64,000 nt of DNA, taken from a phage. The notes under the pieces are model-generated. The model did no database searches. It was given only the letters and a program-made list of their open reading frames with translations, and had not been told where the DNA came from. This document shows positions 25,071 through 26,464 of the stretch, piece by piece (within the stretch, counting starts at the first letter, position 1; each line of letters begins with the position of its first letter). The stretch is from sequence record PZ179880.1; one strand, written 5' to 3'. Both the position numbers and the translations under genes were made by a program.

Positions 25071-25850
25071 TTAATTAAAAATATATACTTCATCAGTTCC
25101 ATTCTTTTCTTTGGAATGATATATGTTAAAGACGTATTTTTTATTAAGATGCTTAACATTATATTTTTTAGACCATTCTTTAAGAAGAGTGTTTTCCTTT
25201 CCGTGATGCTCTAAAACATTCGACAGTCCAAATTTTATTCCTCTGTCATTTAAAGAATCTAAAAGATTTAAAAGGTCTTTTTCTTCTTCTTCTGACCAAA
25301 ATTTATTATAATCAGCAACTGTTATAAGATATGGAGGGTCCACATATACAAAATCGCCGTCTAGAATTTTGACATCTTTAAAATGCAATGAACTAAAGAT
25401 TATTTTATCACAATTTTGTTTAAAGTGATTAAAGCGTTTTTCACTATTTTTGTTTATAGTTCTTTTTCCAAACGGAGTAGTAAAATTTCCTTTATCGTTT
25501 ATACGAATCATATTACTAAACCCGTGAAAATGAAGAACATAAAGTAAAAGAGGATCTCTAGTTTTATTATAATCTTCACGTAATTTCAAAAACTCTTCTT
25601 TTGATGTTTTTGATAGTTTGTATTGCTTTATTACTTTTAAAACGTCATCCCATGATACATTAATAAGACGCTTATACATTTCAATAATTGGTTCTTGAAT
25701 ATCATTGGCCAATACAGGACCATTGACGTTCAAAGACACTGATAAACCTCCACAAAATAAATCCACGAATCTGTCATATTTTGGAAAGTGAGGCTTAAGT
25801 TCAGGTAATAATGATTGTTTATTACCTGTATACGCGATAGCTCCTAGCAT
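25071..25850 (-). CDS. dam: DNA adenine methyltransferase Dam (GATC N6-A MTase)
   Basis: 259 aa [35 protein letters not shown]... with DPPY motif; matches T4 Dam (memory). Confidence 0.95.
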
Positions 25851-26410
25851 TATATTCTCTCATTTATTGCAGCAAAAAACGAATTATATAATTCTTCATC
25901 ATATGTATTTGATAGTAATACTAACACGTTTTGTGATTTAGCATATTCATTAAACCTTGCTTGGATGGTTGGATTATCAGTAAATGATTCTCTTTTTGTC
26001 CATTTATTACGTGGATAATATCCGCATGGCAAAAAATCTAATATCATCAATGACACAGGGTTTTCAGTTTTTGTGTATTCTTTTAATTTCTCTTTATCTT
26101 CTAAATATATTCCAACCGAATCAATAGCTGTACCTCCACCAACTTGGTGTTTAATTTCAATTATATGCTTTTTACCGTTGCGAGAAATAACAATATCAAA
26201 TCTTCTAGTACGCTTCTTAGTTATAAAATTAGAACAAAACAAATTATTTGATTTTTCAGTATCATCGGTTAAAACCATTTTTTCTTGATAACTAACTGAA
26301 CAATCAGTGAAATATTCTTTTACTTTATTAAGTATGAAATTTTCAACTACGGCAGATATTTTATATGAATCTCCGTTTAAAGCCATTTCATGCACAATTT
26401 TATTAATCAT
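25850..26410 (-). CDS. Hypothetical protein (186 aa) with candidate PD-(D/E)xK nuclease signature, adjacent to dam
   Basis: Motif [21 protein letters not shown] (D, then E-x-K on next strand); own early promoter and GAGG SD. Confidence 0.5.
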
Positions 26411-26435
26411 TATATCATCCTCAGCAATTTATTTT

Positions 26436-26464
26436 ATAATACCATAACAAGCTGAGAAAGTAAA
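26436..26464 (-). promoter_or_regulatory. T4-type early promoter upstream of the 186-aa ORF (-35 TTTACT, -10 TATTAT, TGn)
   Basis: Minus-strand GTTTACT..N17..TGGTATTAT. Confidence 0.6.

Follow-up and report, generated by a model that had tools for sequence, protein, structure and literature searches.

A candidate restriction endonuclease gene adjoining dam in T-even phages, and its deletion in T4

We analyzed a 64,000-nt stretch of sequence record PZ179880.1 (hereafter the window), which derives from a T-even phage (genus Tequatrovirus), and found a candidate Type II restriction endonuclease gene directly upstream of dam. The gene is an open reading frame (ORF) of 186 amino acids (aa) (minus strand, 25850..26410; phrog_8706, function unknown), and its product is labeled 'hypothetical protein' in every phage record examined. 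We lean towards a reading in which this protein is the restriction (R) subunit of a compact Type II restriction–modification cassette, with the T-even Dam as its modification (M) subunit, and cuts unmethylated GATC in a methylation-sensitive manner. The putative M half, dam (minus strand, 25071..25850), encodes a GATC N6-adenine methyltransferase of the D12 class (PF02086, E = 6.5e-51; TIGR00571 dam, E = 1.4e-69). The order on the minus strand is primase gene 61 (26707-27735), the 186-aa ORF, dam and dCTPase gene 56, with a plus-strand 66-aa membrane ORF lying between the first two. Positions 24700-27100 of the window are 100% identical to Yersinia phage vB_YepM_ZN18.

A confident structure model of the 186-aa protein shows a single domain with a central mixed β-sheet flanked by helices, arranged in the αβββαβ core of the PD-(D/E)xK fold, which makes it very probable that the protein has a nuclease fold. 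In the model, a long first helix (residues 15-33) carries E23 (minus strand, 26342..26344), an auxiliary active-site acid typical of the fold, strand 2 (residues 67-77) carries D72 and strand 3 (residues 80-88) carries E85 and K87. The catalytic motif spans residues 71-87 (minus strand, 26150..26200; D72 at 26195-26197, E85 at 26156-26158 and K87 at 26150-26152), and both its acidic residue (strand 2) and its (D/E)-x-K (strand 3) are conserved throughout the family. All four residues are invariant in an alignment of nine homologues with identities down to 32%, and together they appear, from conservation and the model, to be a complete PD-(D/E)xK active site. Also invariant is a block directly after the catalytic strand (H88-Q89...G93-T-A-I-D-S98), which makes residues 88-98 (minus strand, 26117..26149) the proposed DNA-recognition element. 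By structure, the protein is closest to orthodox dimeric Type II enzymes, with MunI and EcoRI nearest, while the BFVD library of viral structures returned only the homologue from Dhakavirus MX01 and assorted uncharacterized nucleases. An earlier reading of this DNA from its letters (the sequence-only reading) had pointed to an acidic residue on one strand and E-x-K on the next, and to a possible restriction-endonuclease fold, while allowing that the motif could be fortuitous. The model and the structural comparison bear out the first two points, and the invariance of D72, E85, K87 and E23 down to 32% identity, together with their placement on strands 2 and 3 and helix 1, speaks against a chance motif.

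The same residues bear on whether the protein might be an inactive nuclease-fold protein that binds DNA and assists or regulates Dam, for instance by affecting its expression or targeting. Inactive PD-(D/E)xK domains are common, activity is a prediction from sequence and fold, and T2, a classical laboratory phage with the gene, has a changed C terminus. However, four catalytic residues that stay invariant to 32% identity are unexpected in a degenerate active site, and Dam functions without the nuclease in T4, so we regard a purely regulatory role as extremely unlikely.

The family is very small. It comprises 10 clusters among 5.8 billion proteins, and an exhaustive profile search of 1.84 billion representatives recovered 11 proteins, two of which were spurious repeat proteins. 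IMG/VR contained two loci with a family member, and 185,579 bacterial and archaeal species genomes yielded none. Because the family is so small, synteny could not be counted on a large scale, nor could a bacterial origin be traced. Among the homologues recovered here, the R–dam cassette was found only in T4-related phages.

Linkage of the nuclease gene to dam was strict across these relatives. A T4-type Dam, called by Pfam D12, record annotation or ORF translation, was encoded directly downstream in all nine other homologue loci with a readable neighborhood (32-99% identity), namely the metagenomic contigs with P0002, P0005, P0006, P0009, P0011 and P0013, Dhakavirus MX01, Klebsiella Jiaodavirus 311F and an IMG/VR relative. 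As in Type II restriction–modification systems, R and M genes are adjacent and co-inherited in the window and these nine loci. In the seven loci that were compared, the downstream Dam was 52-76% identical to that of the window, Dam identity dropped roughly in step with R identity, and the R stop and dam start overlapped or abutted in every case. The pair occurs in three genome contexts: in Tequatrovirus and Dhakavirus it is flanked by genes 61 and 56, in Jiaodavirus by denB and ndd, and in a more distant T4-like metagenomic contig it lies directly upstream of a 756-aa ORF that is rIIA-like by eye only. Since internal organization, promoter and co-divergence are kept while the location changes, the R–dam pair behaves as a functional unit, and we consider a functional partnership of the nuclease with Dam likely. 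R and dam travel together with their own promoter as a mobile two-gene cassette, which is present or absent as a whole.

Overlapping genes for a methyltransferase and a small nuclease-fold protein are also found, co-transcribed, in the dcm–vsr pair of Escherichia coli. This likeness, together with the small, single-domain protein, would suit a methylase-linked nicking or repair endonuclease, resembling MutH (which nicks hemimethylated GATC on its unmethylated strand) or Vsr, for which Dam marks the strands to be discriminated in recombination or repair. We consider such a role very unlikely; each of the alternatives to a restriction–modification cassette weighed in this report is placed lower because it explains the strict Dam linkage or the structural neighbors less well.

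To follow the cassette within the genus, we used a 401-bp probe over the nuclease/dam junction, which matched 181 phage records. The junction was intact in 148 of these, and the remaining 33 had the dam side with an 87-bp nuclease remnant, as in T4; none of the 181 matching records kept the nuclease side without dam. The flanking genes matched 508 records, leaving approximately 327 without a close match to the R–dam junction, and in sampled records of this kind either the whole cassette was missing or a homing endonuclease gene stood in its place. In phage RB7, for example, BLAST homology to the window ends at 25030 and resumes at 26499, with just 40 bp in between, which delimits a cassette of 1468 bp (25031..26498) comprising promoter, R and dam. 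The gene order in both RB7 and RB69 is 56 - dam.1 - 61, where dam.1 is the small membrane ORF mentioned above. In Yersinia phage PYps10T (L009 581-1264), IME340 and G50, the gap between genes 61 and 56 is filled by a gene annotated as a homing endonuclease, which overlaps gene 56 at its start. This gap is a hotspot of mobile nuclease genes.

Phages of this group differ in whether the cassette occupies the 61/56 site, as might be expected of a free-standing homing-type endonuclease that cuts this junction, or another specific site, in cassette-less relatives during co-infection and is copied into them, with dam as a hitch-hiker, in the manner of T4 SegF beside gene 56. However, the pair is also found at denB/ndd and upstream of the rIIA-like gene, and three unrelated genome positions suit a self-contained module better. 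Dam is, moreover, always present and co-diverging, and the closest structures are dimeric Type II enzymes rather than homing enzymes. We therefore judge a homing enzyme to be quite unlikely.

Loss of the nuclease gene was seen repeatedly, and most clearly in T4, which lacks window segment 25938-26477. The breakpoints lie at an 8-bp direct repeat, TTTGTGAT, whose proximal and distal copies occupy 25930..25937 and 26478..26485 of the plus strand; T4 retains a single copy as TTTGCGAT. The deletion amounts to 548 bp and removed the promoter and codons 1-158, leaving the last ~28 codons, which agrees with the sequence-only reading that T4 has no characterized gene of this kind. In T2, loss of one base in a T-run alters the last seven residues and gives a 181-aa product, and the T4 remnant has the same allele, while in phage G29 the nuclease gene is split in two by a frameshift. 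Elsewhere the protein is well conserved, with at least 99% identity in 114 records and, relative to phage Lutter, four synonymous and no non-synonymous codon differences. As in Type II systems, R is not kept without M, whereas M persists without R (T4, G29 and the decay in T2, with dam intact). That R was lost repeatedly while M was retained, with no case of the opposite, is what one would expect of a toxin-like R and an antidote-like M. The T4 Dam, regarded as an 'orphan', has nearly the same 259-aa sequence as the Dam of the window; the difference is that Dam has its partner in the present phage and 147 other records, whereas T4 shows a 548-bp scar. The T4 enzyme is thus probably the remainder of a phage-borne restriction–modification cassette after deletion of the nuclease.

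We compared the protein with named nuclease families for indications of its specificity. Its best Pfam match was DpnII (PF04556; E = 0.0045, 16.8 bits, profile positions 152-235 of 278), which was also the top Pfam match for four of nine family members, with a best E of 8.3e-5. PADLOC REase_II matched the equivalent region weakly and generically (E = 9.1e-5), and NCBIfam gave nothing meaningful for the 186-aa protein. Using hhalign, the ORF family was aligned to a DpnII-family alignment grown from a seed sequence, which scores 335.7 bits as a full-length member of the family and is 99% identical to a database protein. The comparison gave E = 9e-4 with a probability of 23%, and it paired E23, D72, E85 and K87 with E152, D201, E214 and N216, which are invariant in DpnII. 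As judged from these profiles, the affinity to DpnII is a consistent but sub-threshold signal. DpnII and MboI are specific for GATC and blocked by Dam methylation, and DpnM is related to Dam. The phage protein shares with them a Gly-rich segment, G-G-[ST], that follows the catalytic strand, and the partner methylase is of the D12/Dam class in both cases. Membership of PF04556 was rejected, as the score is under threshold and the N-terminal half of DpnII (~150 residues) is absent from the phage protein.

MunI and EcoRI, which represent the EcoRI-like branch of the PD-(D/E)xK Type IIP endonucleases, are nearest in structure, but identity is 12% and HMMER detected no sequence homology even at E ≤ 10. 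EcoRI also has a ~22-residue segment between the two motifs that is absent from the phage protein. By eye, E-A-K-H-Q-G...G-N-A-I-E-R-S of EcoRI resembles E-I-K-H-Q...G-T-A-I-D-S of the phage protein; the resemblance is without statistical support and is a lead rather than evidence. The second of these EcoRI blocks (G-N-A-I-E-R-S) reads the inner base pairs. Its N141 and R145 are T and S in the phage protein, so the specificity of the phage enzyme must differ from AATT. Two further assignments were considered and set aside: the MutH/Sau3AI family, as the closest structural neighbors are not MutH-like, and a DpnI-like Type IIM enzyme, as the model has a single 186-aa nuclease domain with no winged-helix sensor of N6-methyladenine (m6A).

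The closest biological precedent known to us is R.CviAI/M.CviAI of chlorella virus PBCV-1, a lytic virus with a Type II pair for /GATC that is blocked by m6A. The viral DNA is protected by its own methylase, and GATC in the chlorovirus host is unmethylated, which leaves host DNA open to degradation by the enzyme. The present phage, by contrast, infects Dam+ hosts.

Given these relationships, the cassette might operate as follows. Host RNA polymerase would transcribe R and dam as one mRNA right after infection, from the cassette's early promoter, and an overlap of stop and start codons would couple translation of dam to that of R. Dam would methylate adenine in GATC, in line with annotation of the T4 record, which has the enzyme making m6A in GATC in DNA with modified and non-modified cytosine. 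R would be a minimal single-domain enzyme of the EcoRI/MunI type, probably a homodimer, and would bind a short palindrome through the invariant HQ..GTAIDS element. This palindrome is most probably GATC, a specificity favored by the small size of the protein, the invariant recognition block, the GATC-specific partner and the weak affinity to DpnII. Cleavage would require Mg2+ and use E23, D72, E85 and K87, probably leaving 5′ four-base overhangs, as most of the closest structural relatives cut in this way, and would be blocked by the Dam methyl group. Phage DNA would arrive both methylated and carrying glucosyl-hydroxymethylcytosine (glucosyl-hmC), while DNA with unmethylated GATC, such as that of co-infecting phages, would be cut.

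Several observations weigh against this proposal. The similarity to DpnII falls below the Pfam gathering threshold (16.8 versus 23 bits), covers part of the profile and reaches an hhalign probability of just 23%, and DpnII has N216 where the phage protein has K87. Neither the protein nor the family profile had a sequence match in the PDB by HMMER, even at E ≤ 10, and confidence in the structure model is low in the GGG loop (residues 91-93), beside the proposed recognition element. The literature searched contained no paper on the ORF or on a restriction partner for a T-even Dam. The listed hosts (E. coli, Shigella, Yersinia, Salmonella and Klebsiella) are Dam+ and the phage DNA is shielded by glucosyl-hmC, so a methylation-sensitive GATC nuclease is left without an obvious substrate and Dam appears to be a redundant antidote. 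T4 DNA resists 94% of Type II enzymes (PMC7653180). Site avoidance does not help either. GATC is the most depleted palindromic tetranucleotide in the window, with 66 sites observed versus 208 expected (observed/expected, 0.32), but depletion is stronger in RB69 (positions 1-50000; 28 versus 174 expected, 0.16), which has neither the nuclease nor dam, and we rejected it as support for GATC specificity. The next most depleted palindrome in the window is TCGA (0.56). GATC avoidance in enterobacteriophages has long been reported.

The shielding of phage DNA and the Dam+ hosts also raise the question of a nuclease directed at cytosine-containing host DNA. Such an enzyme would either require Dam methylation (Type IIM, DpnI-like) or be indifferent to it (Sau3AI-like), the phage being exempt through glucosyl-hmC and Dam topping up host methylation or serving another purpose. 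In Dam+ hosts, methylated GATC is an abundant cellular substrate, and T-even phages are known to degrade host DNA at the time when the promoter predicts expression. A nuclease fold and an invariant active site are established for the protein, and T4 DNA with glucosyl-hmC resists most Type II enzymes (PMC7653180). Against this, Pfam found no winged-helix or other second domain in the protein or family members, so that the single 186-aa domain lacks a methyl-sensing module, and the one family to which its sequence shows affinity, DpnII, is blocked by methylation. Self-protection by hmC alone would also leave the co-inheritance and co-divergence of Dam, and the missing R-only genomes, unexplained. 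T-even phages, moreover, already have EndoII and EndoIV to act on host DNA. We consider a host-directed nuclease unlikely. The sequence-only reading had taken the gene next to Dam for a nuclease, possibly methylation-sensitive or methyl-directed, aimed at host DNA; the nuclease fold and active site stand, while neither the target nor the methyl-directed mode found support. A methylation-sensitive GATC enzyme would spare the DNA of Dam+ hosts, and a methyl-directed one is at odds with a single nuclease domain free of a methyl-sensing domain and with the affinity to DpnII. The nature of the pair as a cassette had been overlooked.

For a restriction–modification cassette, possible answers to the question of substrate are under-methylated co-infecting phages, a purely selfish addiction role, or GATC in hmC-containing DNA. 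A specific form of the last idea, which we regard as speculative and rather improbable, is that the nuclease evolved in hmC phages to cut glucosyl-hmC GATC lacking the Dam methyl group, as a weapon between T-even phages. Were this idea true, co-infecting Dam-less relatives of the RB7, RB69 or T6 type would be shredded, and recombinational repair of the breaks would drive marker exclusion across the genome and help the cassette to spread. Dam would then gain a real protective role, and the system could contribute to the extreme avoidance of GATC.

Expression signals around the gene are consistent with early, joint transcription of the cassette. The ORF anticipated by the sequence-only reading is present, although the range given there, 25850-26464, also takes in the promoter. 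Its own T4-type early promoter (minus strand, 26436..26465) consists of GTTTAC (26465-26460) and the extended -10 element TGgTATTAT (26444-26436), with a spacer of 17 nt when TTTACT is taken as the -35 hexamer. A Shine-Dalgarno sequence, GAGG (minus strand, 26419..26422), lies 8 nt before the ATG at 26410-26408. At the other end, the gene adjoins that of the GATC methyltransferase in a TAATG overlap (minus strand, 25848..25852), in which the TAA stop of R shares one base with the dam ATG. All three features (promoter, Shine-Dalgarno sequence and adjacency) had been noted earlier and were found as described.

Promoter-like matches occur at chance density in this AT-rich region (15 found versus 16 ± 4.3 expected), so a single match proves little. 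The early promoter is nevertheless credible because its position is conserved across divergent loci. GTTTAC-N17/18-TGnTAnnAT was found 55-58 nt upstream of the start codon in five of nine loci (the window, Dhakavirus MX01, Klebsiella phage 311F and two metagenomic homologues), and near-matches occur in two further homologue loci. It has been retained despite diverged spacers, including at a locus in a different genome context, and a promoter is marked at the same place in two independent phage annotations (JB75 and Lutter).

Upstream of the promoter, between it and the end of gene 61, lies a terminator-like hairpin of 11 pairs followed by a T-run (minus strand, 26522-26547), antisense within dam.1, and its sequence is kept in T4. 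This hairpin may shield the R–dam transcript from upstream transcription. The dam.1 gene itself (plus strand, 26510-26710; phrog_2024, function unknown) encodes the predicted 66-aa membrane protein, and has a strong AAGGAGG Shine-Dalgarno sequence and, at 26483-26490, the late-promoter-like GATAAATA. The dam.1 gene is convergent with gene 61, whose 3′ end it overlaps by 4 nt, and is intact yet unannotated in T4 record AF158101.6. We considered dam.1 as a part of the cassette and rejected it, as it occurs in cassette-less RB7 and RB69 and in T4.

Metagenomic T4-like contigs with the cassette have extra small ORFs nearby (L011 3657-3938 and 5355-5723; L012 2832-4420), including a 93-aa ORF between dam.1 and the nuclease gene, and, downstream of dam, TraT-like and DUF5384 ORFs in the place of gene 56. 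The surroundings therefore vary even though the pair itself stays fixed. At the downstream end in the window, gene 56 as delimited by the ORF caller (minus strand, 24492-25025) starts at a TTG that lies five codons before the ATG used in annotated relatives (177 versus 172 aa), which probably reflects a rule of the ORF caller and no real extension.

The T2 and T4 Dam enzymes are among the best-studied DNA methyltransferases, but they are dispensable, and their role for the phage is unclear in a genome already shielded by glucosyl-hmC. Classical genetics could easily have missed the nuclease gene, which is deleted in T4 and has a frameshifted 3′ end in T2, while T6 has been reported without adenine methylation. 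Judging from the model and the conserved residues, the protein would work like an orthodox Type IIP enzyme in an unexpected place. If our reading is correct, T4 Dam would be a clear case of an orphan methylase that arose when its nuclease was lost through a deletion whose scar can still be seen, and the enzyme repertoire would gain a small (186 aa), phage-restricted family of endonucleases. Many virulent T-even phages, some of them proposed for therapy, would then carry an active restriction enzyme, which could affect co-infecting phages, plasmids or cocktail partners.

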